The notes under the pieces are model-generated. The model was not told where the DNA came from and did no database searches. It worked only from the letters and a program-made list of their open reading frames with translations. A DNA stretch of 64,000 nt. Origin: a virus. The first letter of the stretch is position 1, and each line of letters starts with the position of its first letter. Below are positions 12,737 through 62,683 of this stretch, one piece after another. A program made the translations under genes and the position numbers. Where the stretch lies: positions 64,001 to 128,000 of IMG/VR virus record IMGVR_UViG_3300016665_000824, one strand, 5' to 3'.

Positions 12737-13247
12737 AAATATTTAGGTTTGACTGATATCGAAAAATCACGCCGAAGGGGATATCGACTATCCATGCAGG
12801 TGACTGCTCATACTGCGTCCTTATGGGCTGTCTTGGTACAGGGGTAATATCCCGTCCGTCCCATTCGACTCCTAAGAAGTTTTTGCTGGGGATTTTAAAT
12901 CTGTTGTACTTCGCGATCGCGTGAGAGATGAACGCCAGTTCGACAGGAACTTTTTGTTTGTATTCAGTCTCGTTGGCATATCCTTTGATCGCCAAAACCT
13001 CAATCCTTTGCATTCGATAAGCCCTGTTTGGGCTGTCGGGACGCTCAGAATCTTTGCCGTGGTCGCCAATTGAAGCTATGCCGACGGTCTCGCCTTCGAT
13101 CACGTTGTAGTAATCCCCACTAGTGTCTAAGTGCAGCTCACTGATAATGTGTGCGACAAAGTGATTTATCGACTCGGTTATAAGCCCTTTGTAATAGTCT
13201 TCAAAGTTCATCGTGGCGATCGCAAAATATTGCCTTGATATTACCAC
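12717..13247 (-). CDS. hypothetical protein
   Basis: 176 aa ORF in minus-strand structural block. Confidence 0.4.
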   Translation of the reverse strand: MVISRQYFAIATMNFEDYYKGLITESINHFVAHIISELHLDTSGDYYNVIEGETVGIASIGDHGKDSERPDSPNRAYRMQRIEVLAIKGYANETEYKQKVPVELAFISHAIAKYNRFKIPSKNFLGVEWDGRDITPVPRQPIRTQYEQSPAWIVDIPFGVIFRYQSNLNIYGEFVE

Positions 13248-13373
13248 AGAAATGCGTTATGGTTGTTATGCGATCGCCAAGTCTCAATTGGCAGGAAGAA
13301 TGTCACTGGCGACAAACATAAGGATACGCGGCGAGATACTGGCGATCATCTTAAAAGAAATCGTAAAAACCAC

Positions 13374-17471: not shown

Positions 17472-17595
17472 AATTTTCCTCTTGTTTTGCCACAAAATTA
17501 AAACATTTTTACGTTATATATGGTATCCTTATGAGGTGTCCATATATTGGATCAAATCCTAGTATAAGGATACACCAAAAAACGGAAAAACGAGT

Positions 17596-18051
17596 ATGTC
17601 TAACTCTAGTTCTGCCACAAAATTGGCGATCGCAAGATTAAAAGGATCTGACCTGCCTATTTTTGTTCCAGTTTCAGTCTCTGAGAAAGTCGCAACCCTA
17701 GTCAGGGAGTGTATTTTACAGTCCGACAGTTTAAAGATATTAAAAGTTACTACTACAGTTTACAACGAGCTTACTAAGCATTTAAAGCAGTACGAAAAGC
17801 CAAAATATACCATTCCTCAGTATCTTTTGATGCTCCTATATACGGTTTCTACTACTTCAGAATTGATCGAAAAACACAACAAGGGTTTAATTTCAGATGA
17901 CGAGTTTATTAACTGTATCAAAAACAACAAAAACGCAAACGGGACTAAAACCTCCCGCAAAATGGGTCGGAAGAAAGCAAGCGTTGATGCCAGCGATCGC
18001 GCAGTACTTCCCCGCGAGGTTCACAAAAGAACCAGTTCCAAGGTTTCTTGA
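17596..18051 (+). CDS. hypothetical protein (3-prime end overlaps methyltransferase start; true end uncertain)
   Basis: 151 aa ORF. Confidence 0.35.
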   Translation: MSNSSSATKLAIARLKGSDLPIFVPVSVSEKVATLVRECILQSDSLKILKVTTTVYNELTKHLKQYEKPKYTIPQYLLMLLYTVSTTSELIEKHNKGLISDDEFINCIKNNKNANGTKTSRKMGRKKASVDASDRAVLPREVHKRTSSKVS

Positions 18052-29870: not shown

Positions 29871-29957
29871 CTCCAGCAACTAAAGCAAGATTCACAAATA
29901 GGCGATCGCCTTCTCTGCCTCGTTTTTTAACATTTTGTGGCAGTTAAAAGAAAATGT

Positions 29958-30016
29958 TTGACAGTATGCCTAGTAGTGTGTATGATGGTATTTAGTTTCA
30001 GGTAAAACAATATGAC
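29958..30016 (+). repeat. ~60-bp junction segment, copy B (upstream region of gene 30012)
   Basis: See copy A. Confidence 0.6.
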
Positions 30017-31823: not shown

Positions 31824-32101
31824 CTCGCATCCAAGTCCAGCGAATGTGGCTAGAGGACATCCGTGGCAAGTCTCTAGCTCCTCAGTTGGAGATTTGGAAG
31901 AACAAATACCTTGCCGCAAATAATCTCACGCATCTGGATGCTCAGGGGCTGGAGCAACTGCTTAAGGCTCTTGAGTCTATGACTAAGGCTACGGTGAGTA
32001 ACGCCGAGGAATTGGATAGTCAGATGCGCGAGAGGATTAAGAGTGGCGACTACTCGATTCGATTTGTTGAAAAGATTGTTGAAGATGATGAATATTTTTA
32101 G
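31802..32101 (+). CDS. hypothetical protein
   Basis: 99 aa; 3-prime end encoded by junction repeat R1. Confidence 0.4.
   Translation: MDRSELLTRIQVQRMWLEDIRGKSLAPQLEIWKNKYLAANNLTHLDAQGLEQLLKALESMTKATVSNAEELDSQMRERIKSGDYSIRFVEKIVEDDEYF
32074..32100 (+). repeat. junction repeat R1 (GATTGTTGAAGATGATGAATATTTTTA), copy a
   Basis: Identical 27-mer at 32619-32645; both followed by a purine-rich RBS-like GGAGG/AGAGG. Confidence 0.75.
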
Positions 32102-32120
32102 GAGGAGGTAAACCCCAACC

Positions 32121-32336
32121 ATGCGAAACGCCTACTTAACACTTTTTGTGATCAACACCCGTTCAGGACTCGCAGTTAATTATTCAATCAATACCGCAGC
32201 CGACCAGAAGGAGGCTAGAGCCGATGCTCTACTACTCATCGATGAGAGATATCGAGGTCAAAATATTCAGGTTCTAGAAACATCTATTATTCCAAACGAA
32301 GTTATCGATCAGGTTTATGAGTCTCGACACGAGTAA
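32121..32336 (+). CDS. hypothetical small protein
   Basis: 71 aa; GGAGGAGG RBS upstream. Confidence 0.4.
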   Translation: MRNAYLTLFVINTRSGLAVNYSINTAADQKEARADALLLIDERYRGQNIQVLETSIIPNEVIDQVYESRHE

Positions 32337-32340
32337 ACTC

Positions 32341-32384
32341 GATCGCCACTTTTTCAGATCTGAATTACCACAAAAGCACAATGA
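32341..32384 (+). repeat. junction repeat R2 (...AGATCTGAATTACCACAAAAGCACAATGA), copy a
   Basis: 29-bp identical core at 32356-32384 and 33097-33125, flanked by near-identical GATCGNCNCTTTTT. Confidence 0.75.
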
Positions 32385-32614
32385 TTTTAGAGGCCTATTA
32401 TGAAACGTGGGTATCTCGCCCCATTCAAAAGAGAGCTAAAGGTCGAGCCACCTATAGTAAGCCGCAGTGGGAGCATACCTCAGACACAGAAGAAGAGGCG
32501 ATCGCTCACAACAAGATGCTTTCGGCTTACTACCCCGACTGGAAGATTGAAATCAGGGCTGTCGAACAAAAACGAGAATACTGGGATGTCAAGACTGCGG
32601 CAGTTCGAGATTAA
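32381..32614 (+). CDS. hypothetical small protein
   Basis: 77 aa; ATG supplied by junction repeat R2; alternative frame 32400..32627 also open. Confidence 0.35.
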   Translation: MILEAYYETWVSRPIQKRAKGRATYSKPQWEHTSDTEEEAIAHNKMLSAYYPDWKIEIRAVEQKREYWDVKTAAVRD

Positions 32615-32618
32615 AGAA

Positions 32619-32645
32619 GATTGTTGAAGATGATGAATATTTTTA
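32619..32645 (+). repeat. junction repeat R1, copy b
   Basis: See copy a. Confidence 0.75.
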
Positions 32646-32655
32646 AGAGGTTAAT

Positions 32656-33147
32656 ATGGCAAGTGTCAAGCATTATTTAAGTTGCCCAGCTAAGCCCTAC
32701 GAAGAAGGGATACCCTTATACTCCGATCGCCTGAGAGAATGGTTTCACGATATCGGTGATGTCTGGGAATACTACGAAGATCAGATCGGAGAAGATGAGG
32801 ATATTGATCTTGAATGGGCGGAAGCCAAGCAATCGCCTCAAGGTATTTGTGAAATGGCTCGTCTTTTCTTAGGTAGACCAGTTTATTTGCCGTGGGCTGA
32901 GATTCCTGAATTTGATCTACCTGATGGTGTTGACGATATCTCGGAAATACTGCCGCCAAGCCACGAGATCAACATAAAACTTGCCGAGTTAAACAAGCTT
33001 ATCGAAGAAACAAAGCTGGTTGTTTGCTACGAGGAGTCTAGCTACCGCCCAGATCCAGAAACCTTGGACTTTAAGTGCGCGATCGTCGCTTTTTTTAGAT
33101 CTGAATTACCACAAAAGCACAATGAAAGCTCGACAGTTCGAGATTAA
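32656..33147 (+). CDS. hypothetical acidic protein
   Basis: 163 aa; C-terminal codons lie in second copy of repeat R2. Confidence 0.4.
   Translation: MASVKHYLSCPAKPYEEGIPLYSDRLREWFHDIGDVWEYYEDQIGEDEDIDLEWAEAKQSPQGICEMARLFLGRPVYLPWAEIPEFDLPDGVDDISEILPPSHEINIKLAELNKLIEETKLVVCYEESSYRPDPETLDFKCAIVAFFRSELPQKHNESSTVRD
33081..33125 (+). repeat. junction repeat R2, copy b
   Basis: See copy a; supplies C-terminal codons of gene 32656..33147 and the ATG of gene 33122..33376. Confidence 0.75.
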
Positions 33148-33376
33148 ATTTAGAAACCATCCAGAGTGCGATCGCCTAGTCGAAGCCACCAGTCATGCCA
33201 AAGCCAAGATGAAGCTCGCCTACGAGTTGGTTGAGGCGGGAGTATTTAATACTTTTGGAGAGGCTTTACTGGCGATCGCCACCTGCCGAGTCTTACAGCC
33301 AATGAAGCGAGGGAAACCCGAAGGGTGGTATCGGGTGAACCCTAAACGAAAAACAACAAGGAACAAAAAGCAGTGA
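33122..33376 (+). CDS. hypothetical small basic protein
   Basis: Internal ATG at 33122 (supplied by R2 copy) inside track ORF 33020..33376. Confidence 0.35.
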   Translation: MKARQFEIKFRNHPECDRLVEATSHAKAKMKLAYELVEAGVFNTFGEALLAIATCRVLQPMKRGKPEGWYRVNPKRKTTRNKKQ

Positions 33377-33939: not shown

Positions 33940-34086
33940 TTTGATCGGTAACGTAAATTTGTGGCAATATTAACAGAAGCGTTTCAAGAACAATGAACAA
34001 ACTAATTGCCTATCTGGTAAACAAAATCGAATCTGCTTACCACACTGCAAGATTCCTGCTATCTATACTTAAATTGGAGTTTCCCC

Positions 34087-35572: not shown

Positions 35573-35605
35573 AAATCCATAAAACTACCACAAAATCGAG
35601 TTATC

Positions 35606-39191: not shown

Positions 39192-39373
39192 GAGAGGTGA
39201 ATCCAACTACGGCGTTGTTATTTCGTCAACAGAAAACAACAAAATTAACACAAAACTACGGATTTTATTTTACCCTCAAGGTAAGATAGAGGAGGTTGCA
39301 AAGAGTCGGCTAGACTTTGCGATCGCCCCTACTGATATCAATAGCGCTAGCCATAAATTTTTGGATACTTACA

Positions 39374-41160: not shown

Positions 41161-41240
41161 CTGACGTATATTTGTGGTAGTATTATTTTATTAGGCGATC
41201 GCCACAAGAATCGCATTAAACTTTTATCAGGTGAATAAAT

Positions 41241-41599: not shown

Positions 41600-41953
41600 A
41601 TGGCTACACAACTAGTCCACTATGAATATCTCTGTCACGGTAAGGCGTGGAAGATGCTCGCAGTAATTGGTGAACAGTTACTAAGCTACGATCAGCTATC
41701 AAGAAAGTACTTGGAGTTTGAGGGCGATTTCACTGGCGTTGTTACTACACCTGAAAAATGGGATATAGACACAACCTTGGAGGAGTTCACAAGGGCTGGA
41801 GCTATTTGTCAACGAAACACATTACTTGGAGTCAAATATTCACTCCCTCCTGAAGTCCTCGCCCTGAGCACTGACCCTCATTCTTACGAAGCTTGGGCGA
41901 CCGTATTTAGCCGAGCCTCCTTTGACGACTGGAAGACGTTACCCAAAAACTAA
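41600..41953 (+). CDS. hypothetical protein
   Basis: 117 aa ORF. Confidence 0.4.
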   Translation: MATQLVHYEYLCHGKAWKMLAVIGEQLLSYDQLSRKYLEFEGDFTGVVTTPEKWDIDTTLEEFTRAGAICQRNTLLGVKYSLPPEVLALSTDPHSYEAWATVFSRASFDDWKTLPKN

Positions 41954-45386: not shown

Positions 45387-47011
45387 TATCCCGATCGCCA
45401 CACGATATCCATCAGAGTTTCCCTACCAGCGAAAGCAATAACACAAGCGTCACTACAATTAGGCGATCGCCCCAATCTACGAATAGTTTTAGAAGCCTTA
45501 TCCTCAATGCGTAACTTCGCGTTGGGGGTTTCTTCGTAGTAGACGTTACTAAAGTCCGTCATCAGATATTCTTCCTCCTCTAGTGGTGCGATCGCCGATA
45601 TATCGTCATTGCCATCGGCAGCAGCAAAGAATTCACGCAGTTTCCAATACCATTGAGCCTTCCAGTTCATATATAGCTGATCGAAGTCTTGGTTGGCATC
45701 TTCTTCTACCGCATCACCAAAGTTAGCTGCCCATACTTGCGCTCCCCATCCGCGATCGAGCAAGTAAGCTAATGTACCCGAACCAACACCCGTGGCATCT
45801 ATACCCACTTTACAGTTAGGATAGACGCGCAGATATTCTTCCTCAATGATTTGGGCAATACGAATAACGTCTTTGCGATCGCCTACACAGGGGATAACCC
45901 TCGCGATCTTAAGCACATTACCTTGAAACCCACAAATAGCATGGTCATCACTCATGGAGCCGACATCTACACCAAAACTCCAAGGTGTATTGACATTGAT
46001 AATTGTTTCCCACAGATCGGGATTGAGATCGTATCTTGCCCGTGCCGCAACAAAGTAGCTCTTGGGAAGTATAGACGCGCCACCCGATTCCGAGAACAAG
46101 CCCTCAATACGAGTCAGCCAGAAAGGTGAGTTTTCACCCTTCTTGATACGCATCCTTTCAATCCATGCGATCGAGATAGCACCCTTGATTACATCTCTGG
46201 GTAAGTCAGCATCCCATTCGGATTGAGGTTTGATTGGCTCGTCGCGAGAGTTGGGGTCATTAGGCGATCGCTTAATCTTTGCCTCGACCTCTGGTTTAAG
46301 TCGGTGCATCCCATCAAGATGCAGGTCGTAAGCCCATTCAACATTTGGGTGCTGCCATGCACTGCATCTGATATGGCTGAGGTTGCAAGCAGTATAGAAA
46401 GGGGAGTCACATCTGGTTGGGTTGCCAATACGAAGAATCTTATTTTGTTCCCCTGTAAGACAGCTTTCTAGGGAGGTATCTACGGCAGGACTGATACCAC
46501 AGGCTTCATCTTCAATAATAAGCATTCGTTCTGAGTGGATACCCTGCGCTGCCGAATCATTATGGTCACTACTGGAAAAGCCGTATGCCTCAACCCCTTC
46601 TTCGAGGAATACCCGCAGCTCATTTCTCTTGCCGCCGAGCTTCTTCTTGTGTTTGTCGTATAGACGACGGACAACGCCCCAAAGCAACTTAGTAACCTGT
46701 CGGTGAGTTGGTGCGGTAGAGATAACAAGCGATCGCACAGCAAATACCGCCCAGAGGACTAACCACCCACTCAAGTATGTCTTGCCTAAACCGTGGCAGG
46801 CGGCAACATTGGTAACACGCTTGTTCTTGACCGATTCAAGAATGGTGATCTGTTGTCCCGTGATAACAATATCGGGTTCAAGGTATCGAATAAATCCTTC
46901 GGGGTCGTCGGCAAATCGGGTTAAGTCTTCACCGATCGCCACATCCCCCTCATTACCTGATACCAGCTTAATCTGCGTATTACAGCTCGTCTTCAGTCTC
47001 GCAAAGCCCAC
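45383..47011 (-). CDS. terL: terminase large subunit
   Basis: Walker A-like ACHGLGKT, Walker B-like LIIEDEA; 542 aa. Confidence 0.75.
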   Translation of the reverse strand: MGFARLKTSCNTQIKLVSGNEGDVAIGEDLTRFADDPEGFIRYLEPDIVITGQQITILESVKNKRVTNVAACHGLGKTYLSGWLVLWAVFAVRSLVISTAPTHRQVTKLLWGVVRRLYDKHKKKLGGKRNELRVFLEEGVEAYGFSSSDHNDSAAQGIHSERMLIIEDEACGISPAVDTSLESCLTGEQNKILRIGNPTRCDSPFYTACNLSHIRCSAWQHPNVEWAYDLHLDGMHRLKPEVEAKIKRSPNDPNSRDEPIKPQSEWDADLPRDVIKGAISIAWIERMRIKKGENSPFWLTRIEGLFSESGGASILPKSYFVAARARYDLNPDLWETIINVNTPWSFGVDVGSMSDDHAICGFQGNVLKIARVIPCVGDRKDVIRIAQIIEEEYLRVYPNCKVGIDATGVGSGTLAYLLDRGWGAQVWAANFGDAVEEDANQDFDQLYMNWKAQWYWKLREFFAAADGNDDISAIAPLEEEEYLMTDFSNVYYEETPNAKLRIEDKASKTIRRLGRSPNCSDACVIAFAGRETLMDIVWRSGY

Positions 47012-47567
47012 CGCTTAGTACCTCCCTGATAGTTGTTTGCGCTTGATCGGCGATCGCCATAATCGTCTCGGCTTTGGACTGCGGTAGTATTCCCTCGTTA
47101 GCCATTTGCGTCGCTAGTACATCGATTGTTGTCCGAGGTATCGCTGGCATAATCATCTCGATAATCTTGGGAGGGCAGCGCAGGATAACCTCGTTAGTAG
47201 TCTCTACCTCGTCAATGCAATCTAAGACTAATTCATCGGGCTTTTTCTTGTTTGGGACATACCGAGTCCTTTTAGTTCGAGAGGTGGTAGTCCTTGGAGA
47301 CTTGTGGCAGGTTAAATAGTCTTCTACGCAAGCCTTAGCTAAGTTAATAAAGTAATCGGGCTGCGATCGCCTGTAGGCTAGTAGCGCGTCGTCAATTTCT
47401 TCGCTCAGAGTTGGACACTCCTGTCTCAATCTGAGATACGTGTCTTTCGATAGAATACGAGGATCGTTTTTATAAATGGATTCGACCTCACCAGTTATCC
47501 TGATGCGGTCTTTTATCTCCTTTATTAATGCGGGAGTTACCTGCTTGATTACGCCTTTCTTAGCCAT
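46980..47567 (-). CDS. terminase small subunit candidate (positional)
   Basis: 195 aa immediately upstream of and overlapping terL. Confidence 0.3.
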   Translation of the reverse strand: MAKKGVIKQVTPALIKEIKDRIRITGEVESIYKNDPRILSKDTYLRLRQECPTLSEEIDDALLAYRRSQPDYFINLAKACVEDYLTCHKSPRTTTSRTKRTRYVPNKKKPDELVLDCIDEVETTNEVILRCPPKIIEMIMPAIPRTTIDVLATQMANEGILPQSKAETIMAIADQAQTTIREVLSGGLCETEDEL

Positions 47568-47598
47568 TCATCGACGAAAGCATGTCCTAACGCAGATT

Positions 47599-47847
47599 CT
47601 AGCCGATTTTGTGGTAATAGCGATCGCATTCTGCTAATTCTGACTCAATATACTTAAGATCGGACTCAAGATGAGGGGACAGAGGATTTAGATGGGCGTA
47701 TCTCATCTCGGCGGAATATCTTCTATAGAGGATCTTAAGCTCTTCCTTTGTTGGCTCAGGTAGCGATCGCCTAGCTCTGTCCTTGATCATTACATCGGAA
47801 TACTGTTCAAAAGCCAATTTATTCATTACTGATTCTGCTGATCGCAT
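47599..47847 (-). CDS. hypothetical protein
   Basis: 82 aa ORF. Confidence 0.35.
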   Translation of the reverse strand: MRSAESVMNKLAFEQYSDVMIKDRARRSLPEPTKEELKILYRRYSAEMRYAHLNPLSPHLESDLKYIESELAECDRYYHKIG

Positions 47848-50331: not shown

Positions 50332-51481
50332 ATTTCTTGGGCATAATTACCGATGTCAGGAATGATTCCTGCTCTACTCCGTCGCAAGGGCTAACCATTA
50401 CTAGCGGTCGAGTTCCCTCGTATACCTCCAGCTTAATGTGTTTTGATTTTGTGGTATCCAAAATATGCTGCAAGTATTTTATGTTGAACCGAGCAGCAAA
50501 TCCTGACACGCCAACATCGCATGGCAGTGATTCTTCCACCCTGCCAACACCCGCAACTTCAGCAACAAGTATCAACTCATCACCCTTGATAGTGATGTCA
50601 ACCAAGTAGCTAGTAATCTCACCCTCACACAACGAAGCAACGGTCTTCAAGCTGGTAATCAGCTCTTTGCGATCGCACTTTACCGACCCAGACATCTCTT
50701 TGAGCCGTACGTTAACGAGACTCGATCGTACTGGTGGAAATGGTTGAGCAATTAGTGGTGAGATGATGGTTAGCGCGTGGCTATAAAACCAAATATGGTT
50801 ACTGGCTAAACGCACTTCAGTCTCTGCTTGGGTGATGTGCAGAACCTCTTTGAGCGATCGCGCAGGTATTGTCGCATTAATCAGCTTTTCACTCAATTCG
50901 GGGTGGACAAATCTGATACAAGATCCTCGACAGCCATCGGTTGCTGTGAAGGATAGGAATCTCGTCGGGTCATCTTCACCATCAATGATTTCGTCGTACT
51001 CCGCTAGGTTCACACCCGTAAGTGCAGGCTTAGTTTCGTCGTTAGATACGAGCTTTAAGGTAGCCACAATGCCGTCCCGCAGTATATCTGTGGCGATCGC
51101 AAAGGTGTCAGCATCAGTAATCTTGGGGGTGCTTGGGTATGAGTCGGCGCTGATAGTTGGTAGTGAGATTTTACTCTTACCACACTTAATAGTGGCAATA
51201 CCTTCGGATACCTTGATTAAAACCTCTTCACCGTTGAGGGACTTTACCGCGTCGGAGAATCGCTTGGCATTGAGCGCGATCGCGCCCTCTTCTTTGATAC
51301 TATCGGAATCCTCTCTGCGGATTAGCCAAAGCTTTAGGTCGGTAGCTGTGATGGTGAAGAGATCGTTCTTCGCTTCGAGTCGAAAGTTTGTTAAGATTTC
51401 CTGCGGTGGAGACTTAGAAACAGCTTCCTTTACTGCGTCCACCATCGATTTCAACGTTTTGAGAGGGAGTGTTAGTTGCAT
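50300..51481 (-). CDS. dnaN: DNA polymerase III beta subunit-like sliding clamp
   Basis: Matches to DnaN pattern: LFTITATDL, FTATDGCRG, FNIKYLQHILD, MPKKF near C-terminus; acidic tail. Confidence 0.55.
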   Translation of the reverse strand: MQLTLPLKTLKSMVDAVKEAVSKSPPQEILTNFRLEAKNDLFTITATDLKLWLIRREDSDSIKEEGAIALNAKRFSDAVKSLNGEEVLIKVSEGIATIKCGKSKISLPTISADSYPSTPKITDADTFAIATDILRDGIVATLKLVSNDETKPALTGVNLAEYDEIIDGEDDPTRFLSFTATDGCRGSCIRFVHPELSEKLINATIPARSLKEVLHITQAETEVRLASNHIWFYSHALTIISPLIAQPFPPVRSSLVNVRLKEMSGSVKCDRKELITSLKTVASLCEGEITSYLVDITIKGDELILVAEVAGVGRVEESLPCDVGVSGFAARFNIKYLQHILDTTKSKHIKLEVYEGTRPLVMVSPCDGVEQESFLTSVIMPKKFEEDEDDEED

Positions 51482-51506
51482 TTAGTATTATTACCACAAG
51501 ATTGCG

Positions 51507-57016: not shown

Positions 57017-57204
57017 AGGTCTTCAAAGTTTTCTGGAACAAGGTCGAACGAATCAAAGTTTGCGAGCTGAGATTCTACCTGTTCTAGTTCCAAGCTAAGA
57101 TTCTGGGCATCTTCTCCTTGACTCTGTAACTCAGAGATAGACCTCTTAAGTTGATACTTTCTATTAAATAATGATCTAATCAACTCGTCTTGGGCGTTTT
57201 GCAT
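57013..57204 (-). CDS. hypothetical small coiled-coil protein
   Basis: 63 aa ORF, first gene of minus-strand operon. Confidence 0.3.
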   Translation of the reverse strand: MQNAQDELIRSLFNRKYQLKRSISELQSQGEDAQNLSLELEQVESQLANFDSFDLVPENFEDL

Positions 57205-57384
57205 AAGCTTTATGGATAAATATTCGTCTGATTAGACTGTCCGATCACCTGTCCAATGGACATCTGATTAGACTGTCCGATCAGAATAAAATTAGTGTAC
57301 TTAAGTTATTCGCACTTGTCAACAAAATAGTAGAAACTCGTTTTGAATGCGCTAATATTGGGCAATTCAACCTATTAAGACCTT

Positions 57385-57648
57385 ATGAGCGTCACTCAGA
57401 CTGCGCGTTTCCCCGATGATTTACATGCTGCATTGAAAGAACACTGCGATCGCACAGGAAATAGCGCCAACGCAGAAATAATCCTCGCAGTGCGAAAACA
57501 TCTGGGTATGCCAACAGTCGAAGATCGTCTCGATAGTCTTGAAGAGGGATTGAGAAAATGTATTGATAGGTTGAATAGGCTAGAGGCTAGCGCGATCGCC
57601 ACTCAGCAATCTTCCGACACCGATATTCGGTCCAGTGCGGATGATTAG
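57385..57648 (+). CDS. ribbon-helix-helix (CopG/Arc-like) DNA-binding protein
   Basis: N-terminal RFPDDLHAALKEHCDRTG...AEIILAVRKHLG pattern typical of RHH proteins. Confidence 0.4.
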   Translation: MSVTQTARFPDDLHAALKEHCDRTGNSANAEIILAVRKHLGMPTVEDRLDSLEEGLRKCIDRLNRLEASAIATQQSSDTDIRSSADD

Positions 57649-57934
57649 TCGGCGTGTACCAATTTTCATATTTGTAAGTACCCTTTGACCTGTTGCAAGG
57701 CGTACAAGCTGGTACGGTATTTGCAAAGTCGTCGCTACCCGAATCATGGCGCGGAATGATATGGTCTAGTCCGTTTGCCTCGTTACCGCAGTAGGCACAT
57801 TTATAGTCAAACTCTTGGAACGTATAATCTCTAATCTTTTGCAAAACATCTTTTTTCCTAATGCAGTCAGATAGGGATATATAGAGCATATTCAATACCC
57901 ATGTTTTGACAATGCTGCCACAAAATTGAAACAA
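57587..57934 (-). CDS. HNH endonuclease
   Basis: CAYCG...DHIIP...N...CTPCNRSKG HNH motif. Confidence 0.65.
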   Translation of the reverse strand: MFQFCGSIVKTWVLNMLYISLSDCIRKKDVLQKIRDYTFQEFDYKCAYCGNEANGLDHIIPRHDSGSDDFANTVPACTPCNRSKGTYKYENWYTPTNHPHWTEYRCRKIAEWRSR

Positions 57935-58441: not shown

Positions 58442-58545
58442 ATGCACAAGAAATCCCGAAATCGTGTGCATGTTTATTCAATATACACAAGCAACCCGCC
58501 AAGCCTCTCTACGATGCTGAAACTGGCGGGTTGCTTGTGTTGTGA

Positions 58546-61591: not shown

Positions 61592-62683
61592 TTAATTATG
61601 TGTTAAGGGGGTTATCTTGGAGGTTTTAGCACCCTCCTCAGAAAGCCTTGCTAGGTAAGCAGACACCCGCCGTCGCAAACTTTTTTTCGACAGTAAATCA
61701 TACTCTTTTTCAAAGATACAGCAAAGTGATTTGTAAAACAAGTTTTTATACTTGAAATAATGAGTATTCACCCTTTCTGCATCAGCAAAATGTCGAGACA
61801 GATAATAGGAATAGTTTACTTCCGCATTGGAGTCTGTTTGACAAATATGTACTCGTCTCAATCTACTGAGAGACCTGCGATCGCGTACTTCTTCGTCAAT
61901 GGCTCGAATCGCATCAAGGATCTCAAGGTCATCGCTAAATGGTTCGGCGGCTTGATGGATCTCTTTTAAGTAGGAGTCCCATCGCCGAGTTAGCGATCGC
62001 TCCTTGAGATGATTTGATATGGTTCGAGCTGTGACTCCCAATGACTTAGCTATTTCTAGCTGAGAAGCGCCATAAGGTACGAAGTTCTCGTTAGTATAAA
62101 TCCTGTCCTTAGATACTGCCTCAACACCCTCAATCCCCATAGAACATAATTCAGAGGCTTGGAGTTTTAGCAAGTCCTTTGCAGGTACTAACCTGAGTTT
62201 TTTCTTTACTTTGCGCTGCTTGTTTTTTTCTTTTTCTGCCAGTCCAGCAGCAAATTTAGAACGAGCTTGTTTTGCAAGTAATTCGGCGCGAGTACAGTGA
62301 TACTTAACTTGAGTGATCTGAATCGGACTTAGTTCGACTATCGACCCAAGTTTGGCAACATCATGTTGTTTGCAGACCTTGCCAATACTTGTGTATCGCA
62401 CCCATGCTCGACCTTCTGGTAGCCACCGATAATCGATAAGCAATCCAGCTTTGTGAGACTCCCTAATCCATTTTTTGAGTGTGTCGGGTTTTACGCCGCA
62501 ATCACTCGCCAAATGACTGATATTGAATTTAACCCAGCCTTTCCCGCGATCGCTTCTAGATGAAAACTGATCTAGCCCACGCACGACATGCCAAATATTT
62601 ACTGCGCCGATCGCATGATTTTTGATCACGGCGTAGAGAATATTTGTGTAAGTTGTGGCAATTATGGGGTAATATAGTTTCAT
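61592..62683 (-). CDS. HTH domain protein (sigma-70 region-4-like / putative regulator)
   Basis: LEIAKSLGVTARTISNHLK helix-turn-helix; 363 aa. Confidence 0.45.
   Translation of the reverse strand: MKLYYPIIATTYTNILYAVIKNHAIGAVNIWHVVRGLDQFSSRSDRGKGWVKFNISHLASDCGVKPDTLKKWIRESHKAGLLIDYRWLPEGRAWVRYTSIGKVCKQHDVAKLGSIVELSPIQITQVKYHCTRAELLAKQARSKFAAGLAEKEKNKQRKVKKKLRLVPAKDLLKLQASELCSMGIEGVEAVSKDRIYTNENFVPYGASQLEIAKSLGVTARTISNHLKERSLTRRWDSYLKEIHQAAEPFSDDLEILDAIRAIDEEVRDRRSLSRLRRVHICQTDSNAEVNYSYYLSRHFADAERVNTHYFKYKNLFYKSLCCIFEKEYDLLSKKSLRRRVSAYLARLSEEGAKTSKITPLTHN

Follow-up and report, generated by a model that had tools for sequence, protein, structure and literature searches.

Genomic context of the window

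The window, by which we mean the whole 64,000-nt stretch analysed here, encodes structural and packaging proteins (terminase large subunit, portal, Mu-F-like and capsid) together with replication and other DNA functions (DnaB, primase, beta clamp, thymidylate synthase and DNA methylases), and a ParA and ribbon-helix-helix (RHH) gene pair lies immediately to its right. It corresponds to the reverse strand of positions 56779-120778 in a 134,398-bp ENA metagenome contig (ERZ27292652:k141_20893). We examined 82 kb in total, comprising the window, an 8.2-kb left flank and a 9.5-kb right flank, and number all positions by window coordinates unless stated otherwise. Gene positions are the calls supplied with the contig, and motif copies were mapped onto these calls. 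Comparisons were made with only two to four related lineages, which included a 43-kb relative (M3; IMG/VR 3300031951_000374). L033 denotes a sequence covering window coordinates 52823-73533.

The HIP1 palindrome (GCGATCGC) is present at 185 copies per 64 kb, or approximately one per 350 bp, which is more than 20-fold above expectation and is a bias common to the phage and its cyanobacterial host. Assemblies of Nostoc, Desmonostoc and further cyanobacteria contain relatives of the terminase large subunit (TerL), which identifies the host as a cyanobacterium, probably filamentous. There is no close isolated phage: a megablast search of 20 kb against GenBank phages returned zero matches, and the best TerL from an isolated phage was less than 30% identical. 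The source is an uncultured phage of HIP1-rich cyanobacteria, maybe a phage-plasmid of filamentous cyanobacteria. A phage-plasmid lifestyle is possible because no integrase was seen across the 82 kb examined, and the parA/RHH pair is the sole feature from which a lysogenic plasmid might be supposed. No tRNAs were found.

A repeated word belongs to a 15-bp asymmetric motif

The first-pass annotation of the window had drawn attention to a short word recurring more often than expected by chance. This recurrence is real, as exact CCACAAAAT has 7 copies versus 0.75 expected and none of 100 dinucleotide shuffles reached 7, while CCACAAAA has 12 copies versus 2.7 expected and no shuffle reached 12. 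The copies originally listed exist, with positions that were 1-2 nt off, and a coding copy at 50446-50454(-) had been missed. The count of CCACAAAAT alone is not unique because 16 other 9-mers also reach at least 7 copies when HIP1 is masked. What distinguishes the word is its placement. The CCACAAA family and GTAAAACAA are the top non-HIP1 intergenic 7- to 9-mers. Among the 12 copies of CCACAAAA, five are intergenic according to the gene calls (17490, 29933, 32368, 35588 and 57918), two fall at gene 3' ends, within the last codons and shortly ahead of the following start codon (33109 and 47607), and five are intragenic (15226, 17615, 18597, 33751 and 50446). A full-text literature search for the k-mers returned primers and unrelated matches only.

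CCACAAAAT forms the 3' two-thirds of a longer motif, AATAYTRCCACAAAA, which spans 15 bp and is self-contained and asymmetric. The consensus can be written AATAYTRCCACAAA(A/T), and perfect copies of the form AATA(C/T)TGCCACAAAA occur in M3 and in the flanks beyond the window. Across 20 aligned sites, the R position carried 0.4 bits of information and each of the other positions 0.8-2.0 bits, with 0.5 bits or less directly outside the 15-mer on both sides. We call the motif self-contained and asymmetric because its information is confined to these 15 positions and only AATATT within the consensus forms a dyad. The AATAYT half is as well conserved as the CCACAAAA half. The 9-mer is too short to be the true unit: the best sites in the window are 33957(-), 35581(+), 41170(-) and 57911(+), and two of these four, 33957 and 41170, were not in the earlier list because both carry CCACAAAT. 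Table 1 collects the individual sites and the other elements described below.

Table 1. Motif copies and other sequence elements, in window coordinates, with their counterparts in related lineages.
Position (strand)	Sequence or element	Score (bits)	Setting	In relatives
13237..13251 (+)	GATATTACCACAGAA	18.2	divergent intergenic region 13212-13373	L005 ortholog degraded to GATATTACCATGAAA
17483..17497 (+)	TGTTTTGCCACAAAA, weak	9.6	anchor of the first-pass annotation, with 9-mer at 17490-17498; overlaps -35-like TTGCCA, 17 nt ahead of TACGTT	L005 (77% aa relative): TTGCCATAAAAG, TTGCCA and TACGTT kept, 9-mer lost; 17490 9-mer reads CCATAAAAG
17608..17622 (+)	coding copy		Ala-Thr-Lys-Leu codons of gene 17596-18051	L005: GCCACAAGGCTA (Ala-Thr-Arg-Leu), DNA word not retained
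29933..29947 (-)	TTAACTGCCACAAAA, moderate	13.7	reverse orientation; 17 nt upstream of the -35 of strong sigma-70-like promoter 29958-29986 (TTGACA-17-TATGAT)	no ortholog in M3
32361..32375 (+)	TGAATTACCACAAAA, weak	11.9	35-nt repeat D1a (32350-32384), 5 nt before ATG 32381
33102..33116 (+)	duplicate of 32361 copy		repeat D1b (33091-33125), 5 nt before ATG 33122	M3: CCGCAAAA, within 93% identical DNA
33957..33971 (-)	AATATTGCCACAAAT, strong	21.6	53-nt gap before gene 33993, antisense to flanking genes	14/15 positions kept in M3
35581..35595 (+)	AAAACTACCACAAAA, strong	21.2	33-nt gap before gene 35606	15/15 kept in M3; DNA similarity starts only 23 nt upstream
39241..39255 (+)	AAAATTAACACAAAA	17.6	within called 83-aa gene	identical in M3, L008, L009, L011
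41170..41184 (-)	AATACTACCACAAAT, strong	21.8	80-nt gap before MazG-like gene 41241, antisense	ATACTACCACAAA, an island of 13 nt unchanged across four lineages, of which one has 50% TerL identity
47607..47621 (-)	GCTATTACCACAAAA	18.3	last codons of gene 47599-47826, 39 nt before terS-like gene 46980-47567	within 38-nt block kept in four lineages; sole change falls in core (CCACGAAA, M3)
50446..50454 (-)	exact 9-mer without 15-mer context		inside DNA polymerase III beta (sliding clamp) gene	M3: CCACAAACT
51487..51501 (+)	ATTATTACCACAAGA	17.5	25-nt gap before beta-clamp gene start (51481), antisense	L237: AATACTGCCACAAAT at the equivalent place
57911..57925 (+)	AATGCTGCCACAAAA, strong	20.6	80 nt upstream of gene 58006	CTGCCACAAAA invariant in three lineages; both immediate flanks variable
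17490-17498 (+), 17615-17623 (+), 29932-29940 (-), 35588-35596 (+), 47606-47614 (-), 50446-50454 (-), 57918-57926 (+)	exact CCACAAAAT
32368, 33109, 15226 (-), 18597, 33751 (-)	additional CCACAAAA
13252, 17509, 33949, 41162, 47588, 51502	yTrCGTyA (e.g. TTACGTTA)		directly or about 12 nt after the CCACAAA core	L237: forms palindrome TACGTTATAACGTA
18842, 30001, 19726 (-), 23990 (-), 53566 (-)	AGGTAAAACAA		30001 copy after strong promoter 29958-29986, before ATG 30012
11316 (-), 21277 (-), 49111 (-)	ATTCCGATCTGAAyCACC		two copies directly past stop codons, one then followed by a terminator-like hairpin
17520-17575	inverted repeat GGTATCCTTAT...ATAAGGATACC		between putative promoter and gene 17596	retained by L005, where a C-to-T change would leave a G-U pair intact
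32350, 33091	direct repeat D1 (35 nt)		around small genes, 32072-33148
32072, 32617	direct repeat D2 (34 nt)		around small genes, 32072-33148	M3 lacks exactly 32106-32616
32598, 33131	direct repeat D3 (18 nt)		around small genes, 32072-33148
47560-47630 (-)	38-nt block GCGATCGCTATTACCACAAAATCGGCTAGAATCTGCGT		upstream of terS-like gene	all but one base shared by four lineages, of which one has 50% TerL identity; upstream gene varies by lineage
57017-57384	TCTGATTAGACTGTCCGATCA, directly repeated twice		368-nt divergent intergenic region, adjoining weak RHH-like 87-aa gene (57385-57648)
58495-58531 (+)	abiF RNA (RF03085)	46.9	gap between converging genes

Matches to AATAYTRCCACAAAA with at most 3 mismatches numbered 34 in the window versus 6.5 expected, and 19 in L033 versus 2.4 expected. 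To guard against circularity, a position weight matrix (PWM) was trained on ten in-window sites alone and applied with a cut-off of at least 14 bits. It recovered 5 sites in the 9.5-kb right flank (0.09 expected), 2 in the 8.2-kb left flank (0.05 expected), and 12 in the 43 kb of M3 (0.37 expected), against a background of 0.073 sites per 10 kb in 1.24 Mb of unrelated DNA. Strong sites (≥ 17 bits) numbered 16 in the 82 kb and 8 in M3.

Several known elements were compared with the motif and rejected. It is not a HIP1 derivative, as it remained enriched with HIP1 masked and HIP1 adjoins only a few sites. Relative to the DnaA box (TTWTNCACA), ATTGCCACA and ACTGCCACA carry 2-3 mismatches that include the conserved T at position 4. 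The SigJ 'J-box' was likewise rejected from sequence.

Besides the known relative, the exact 15-mer had single chance matches only among the IMG/VR matches listed, and contigs of filamentous cyanobacteria (among them Tolypothrix and Brasilonema) that encode ParA relatives lacked the motif. On these two grounds, we consider the motif to be lineage-specific. Searches for further relatives with a methylase and a 172-aa protein found none, a 189-aa protein was found in JGI metagenomes in the M3 lineage only, and an 89-aa protein had just two homologue clusters.

Sites are concentrated between genes and point in both directions

Non-coding sequence makes up 13% of the total, yet it holds 19 of the 30 matches scoring at least 13 bits (p = 2e-10) and 14 of the 19 matches having at most 2 mismatches. 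Relative to the downstream gene, 12 intergenic sites were sense and 7 antisense (p = 0.36), and the split was roughly even within strictly unidirectional gene blocks. No ORFs lie downstream of the antisense copies. Distances from site to start codon ranged from 1 to 565 nt.

Sites also occur in pairs and clusters. A perfect inverted pair at 71428/71459 flanks TATAAT and lies 16 nt before a start codon, and M3 has an inverted pair of its own (M3 positions 41890/41918) with a -10-like hexamer between its members, at a spacing of 28 nt rather than 31 nt. Right of the window, four sites (64680-64734) are packed into the 84 bp separating two divergent start codons (64653-64736), two facing left and two facing right, with the inner two overlapping on one AATACT. 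Further sites adjoin parA and lie upstream of a pRha-family gene.

These arrangements bear on the lead offered by the first-pass annotation, namely that several copies occupy the position of a ribosome-binding site and might constitute a non-Shine-Dalgarno initiation element, or some other RNA signal in the 5' leader. Counting from the end of the 9-mer, the described position holds for 32368 and 33109 (5 nt before ATG) and for 35588 (9 nt). It does not hold for 47606, 57918 and 17490, which end 23, 79 and 97 nt before their starts, or for 29932, which is reversed. Together with 64720, 66749 and 71459 outside the window, the three well-placed copies lie 2-16 nt before starts without a clear Shine-Dalgarno (SD) sequence, and in this they are like known SD and non-SD translation enhancers. 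Starts of this kind are common: a core SD was present in only 61 of 132 genes, versus a background rate of 11%, and absent from 71 (54%). With about half of the phage genes lacking a core SD, its absence downstream of the motif is nothing unusual.

An RNA signal would need to be on the sense strand at a short, fixed distance, but 7 of the 19 intergenic sites are antisense and their distances are widely spread. Unlike translation enhancers, the motif is strand-independent, is also found in long non-coding regions distant from any start, and has a 5' half that is unrelated to ribosome binding and nevertheless as conserved as the 3' half. Moreover, two of the copies at this position (32361 and 33102, within the region termed R2) are weak and represent one 35-nt duplication, and the core of one is mutated in a close relative. 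We therefore give an RNA-level role a very low probability. The presence of both orientations, the inverted pairs, and the divergent four-site cluster favor an operator acting at the DNA level over any RNA-level or strictly directional signal. The motif is a regulatory element of DNA and not a translation element.

A promoter lacking a -35 element is the main rival

The same evidence can be turned toward a different DNA-level explanation, in which the 15-mer is a lineage-specific promoter without a -35, AATAYT acting as the -10 and CCACAAAA as the discriminator and start region. Host RNA polymerase would recognize it along with a phage or host factor, producing mRNAs with short leaders or nearly none. 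We regard this as the main rival, and a serious one, because AATAYT resembles a -10 and sense copies end 2-22 nt before SD-less starts (64720, 66749, 32361, 35581, 71459 and 72524). An ATG comes 2 nt past the 64720 site and 4-5 nt past the 66749 and 32361 sites. AATAYT retains the key A2 and T6 of TATAAT, conservation over lineages with 50% TerL identity is what would be expected of a polymerase-level signal, and at 41170 the whole stretch between the site and the gene start is conserved, with similarity lost on the far side of the site.

Other observations count against a promoter. Co-orientation fails for about a third of sites, with 7 of 19 facing away from the downstream gene and the near-even split persisting in unidirectional blocks. 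Antisense copies have no ORF to transcribe, and at inverted pairs transcription would run into the preceding gene from its 3' end. The fifth position of AATAYT, an A in TATAAT, is C in half of the sites, and the 82 kb examined showed neither a sigma factor gene nor an RNA polymerase gene. A fixed -35 was rejected, since a match to at least 4/6 positions of TTGACA at 16-18 nt upstream of AATAYT was found at 1 of 20 sites versus a background of 12%, leaving the motif with neither the -35 nor the co-orientation of a sigma-70 promoter. Overlap with predicted sigma-70-like promoters was inconsistent and limited to some sites.

Phage-specific promoters consisting only of a -10 do exist, the T4 late promoter (TATAAATA) being an example. 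The motif is like them in being a short, AT-rich, self-contained element without a -35 that stands before many genes. It is unlike them in that theirs are strictly co-oriented with genes, and in that a cognate sigma or co-activator gene was not found here. On balance, we consider a promoter of this type rather unlikely. A complete version, wherein cyanobacterial RNA polymerase and a phage factor generate near-leaderless mRNAs and the antisense copies drive regulatory antisense RNAs, appears more doubtful still. If true, it would amount to a phage-specific transcription code common to a family of Nostocales phage-plasmids.

Strong sites are conserved beyond their flanks

Eight strong sites were 95% identical to M3 (114/120 positions), in comparison to 81% (509/627) for the 40-nt flanks of the same eight sites (Fisher p = 8e-5). 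The motif is unchanged among lineages with TerL only 50-69% identical. Not every copy shares in this conservation. The coding copy at 17608 is probably a chance match, the one at 50446 is a chance coding copy, and the conservation of 39241 is uninformative because that copy is coding. Overall, the copies at 17490, 17615 and 50446 and both copies in R2 are probably not functional sites.

These data also allow us to weigh the possibility that the motif is a chance or compositional excess of an A-rich word without function. This explanation draws on the 16 equally frequent non-HIP1 9-mers, the five of 12 CCACAAAA copies that are coding (both of those checked, 17615 and 50446, were lost in relatives), and the two copies stemming from a single duplication. 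It is opposed by the 30- to 50-fold enrichment out of sample, the intergenic concentration, the greater conservation of sites than flanks, and the existence of perfect 15-mers as inverted pairs in two lineages. Chance is contradicted for the 15-mer, for which we assign it a negligible probability, and holds for individual weak copies.

Similarity to relatives begins or ends at or beside the sites at 35581, 41170 and 47607, which raises the question of whether the motif is merely a module-junction sequence kept by cassette-shuffling recombination, with no regulatory role. In agreement with such an origin, the R2 copies are situated in the boundary repeats D1, D2 and D3, and M3 is missing one D2-to-D2 unit of 545 bp, which looks like a cassette gained or lost via recombination at boundary repeats. 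However, junctions have no need for one genome-wide 15-bp consensus, inverted pairs or divergent four-site clusters. Conserved regulatory sites can be expected to recombine as a side effect of their function, and the junction location may accordingly be a consequence rather than an alternative. We think a pure junction role improbable and read the mosaic location of sites as a consequence of conserved intergenic sequence, not as their function.

Other elements near the motif

A second element, yTrCGTyA, accompanies the CCACAAA core at six sites (Table 1), and 5 of its 6 intergenic occurrences in the 82 kb adjoin the motif. Another top intergenic word, AGGTAAAACAA, may be a leader or ribosome-binding element at 30001, where its position suggests that the gene starts at 30012 rather than at the called 30093. 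A sequence related to the thrice-repeated ATTCCGATCTGAAyCACC, GATCTGAATTACC, lies inside repeat D1. The inverted repeat GGTATCCTTAT...ATAAGGATACC could serve as an operator or form a hairpin in the leader, and the TCTGATTAGACTGTCCGATCA repeats may be a separate operator. The conserved block GCGATCGCTATTACCACAAAATCGGCTAGAATCTGCGT may control the late operon or be related to packaging.

An Rfam search returned only the abiF RNA, above its gathering threshold of 37 and not at the motif. Four motif-like sites lie in 1,263 bp of non-coding sequence that adjoins the ParA/RHH pair right of the window (L033 13046-13922 = window 65868-66744), and this region may contain the centromere or origin of the putative phage-plasmid.

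Comparison with dispersed phage operators

Bacteriophage P1 has 22 dispersed, asymmetric C1 operators of 17 bp (PMC8546580). The motif described here is similarly asymmetric, comparable in length at 15 bp, and spread over a large phage genome, and it is found with a ParA/RHH partition module, as would be expected of a plasmid prophage. Some P1 operators form overlapping inverted pairs and many overlap promoter hexamers. The overlapping pairs resemble those at 71428/71459 and 64691/64700. Unlike in P1, the sequence here is not similar to ATTGCTCTAATAAATTT, a C1 homologue was not found, and the operator role is putative.

The repressor of L5-type phages has more than 20 asymmetric 13-bp sites, each bound by a monomer via two DNA-binding domains, and L5 stoperators have one orientation relative to transcription, with inversion abolishing function (PMC9283540). 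As with the sites of L5/Cluster A gp71, many short asymmetric copies are distributed genome-wide in promoters and short intergenic gaps, and a monomer with two binding domains offers a plausible way to read the bipartite AATAYT plus CCACAAAA. Like both of these systems, the motif consists of many copies of one non-palindromic consensus within the 13-17-bp range. It departs from stoperators in its mixed 12:7 orientation, and from Cluster A, where sites vary together with repressor specificity, in showing no change between lineages that share 50% TerL identity.

Proposed function

Our preferred interpretation, to which we assign an even chance, is that a lineage-specific protein encoded by the phage, which binds DNA in a sequence-specific manner, uses the motif as its operator. 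The first-pass annotation had also suggested a regulator-binding site, and this suggestion fared better than its translational one, as it fits an intergenic, orientation-independent, conserved 15-bp element arranged singly, in pairs and in clusters. Under the proposed mechanism, a phage-encoded protein would bind the 15-bp sites in intergenic and promoter regions. Each site embeds a -10-like hexamer, AATAYT, and the bound protein could compete with or reposition RNA polymerase in either site orientation because this hexamer lies within the site. We infer the binding, its effect on transcription, and the identity of the binder from sequence.

Candidate binders are encoded beside the site cluster just right of the window, in the region 63639-66119. 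They are the RHH protein, an 83-aa zinc-ribbon ORF, and two proteins of 54 and 189 aa. Searches of Pfam, PHROGs and PDB gave no convincing DNA-binding family or PDB match for the candidate small proteins, and the same searches were uninformative for genes downstream of sites. The sole clear double-HTH protein in the window (363 aa; 61592-62683) was rejected as the common binder since it is missing from M3, which bears the motif. Among lineages whose TerL is 50-69% identical, immunity repressors and their operators would usually have diverged further. Given the invariance of the motif across such lineages, a conserved activator or a polymerase/sigma determinant fits at least as well as a repressor.

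As a class, the motif is ordinary: it is a phage cis-regulatory element, and it entails no new mechanism and no new mode of translation start. Its value is as a testable handle on gene regulation in uncultured phages, maybe phage-plasmids, of filamentous cyanobacteria, comprising a defined 15-bp site with about 16 strong copies in 82 kb, a few candidate binders and, just right of the window, a region that may act as a switch. If the sites are indeed dispersed asymmetric operators, genome-wide repression in the style of P1 and L5 would extend to cyanophages, and the regulator and its operator would provide a portable pair for cyanobacterial genetics.
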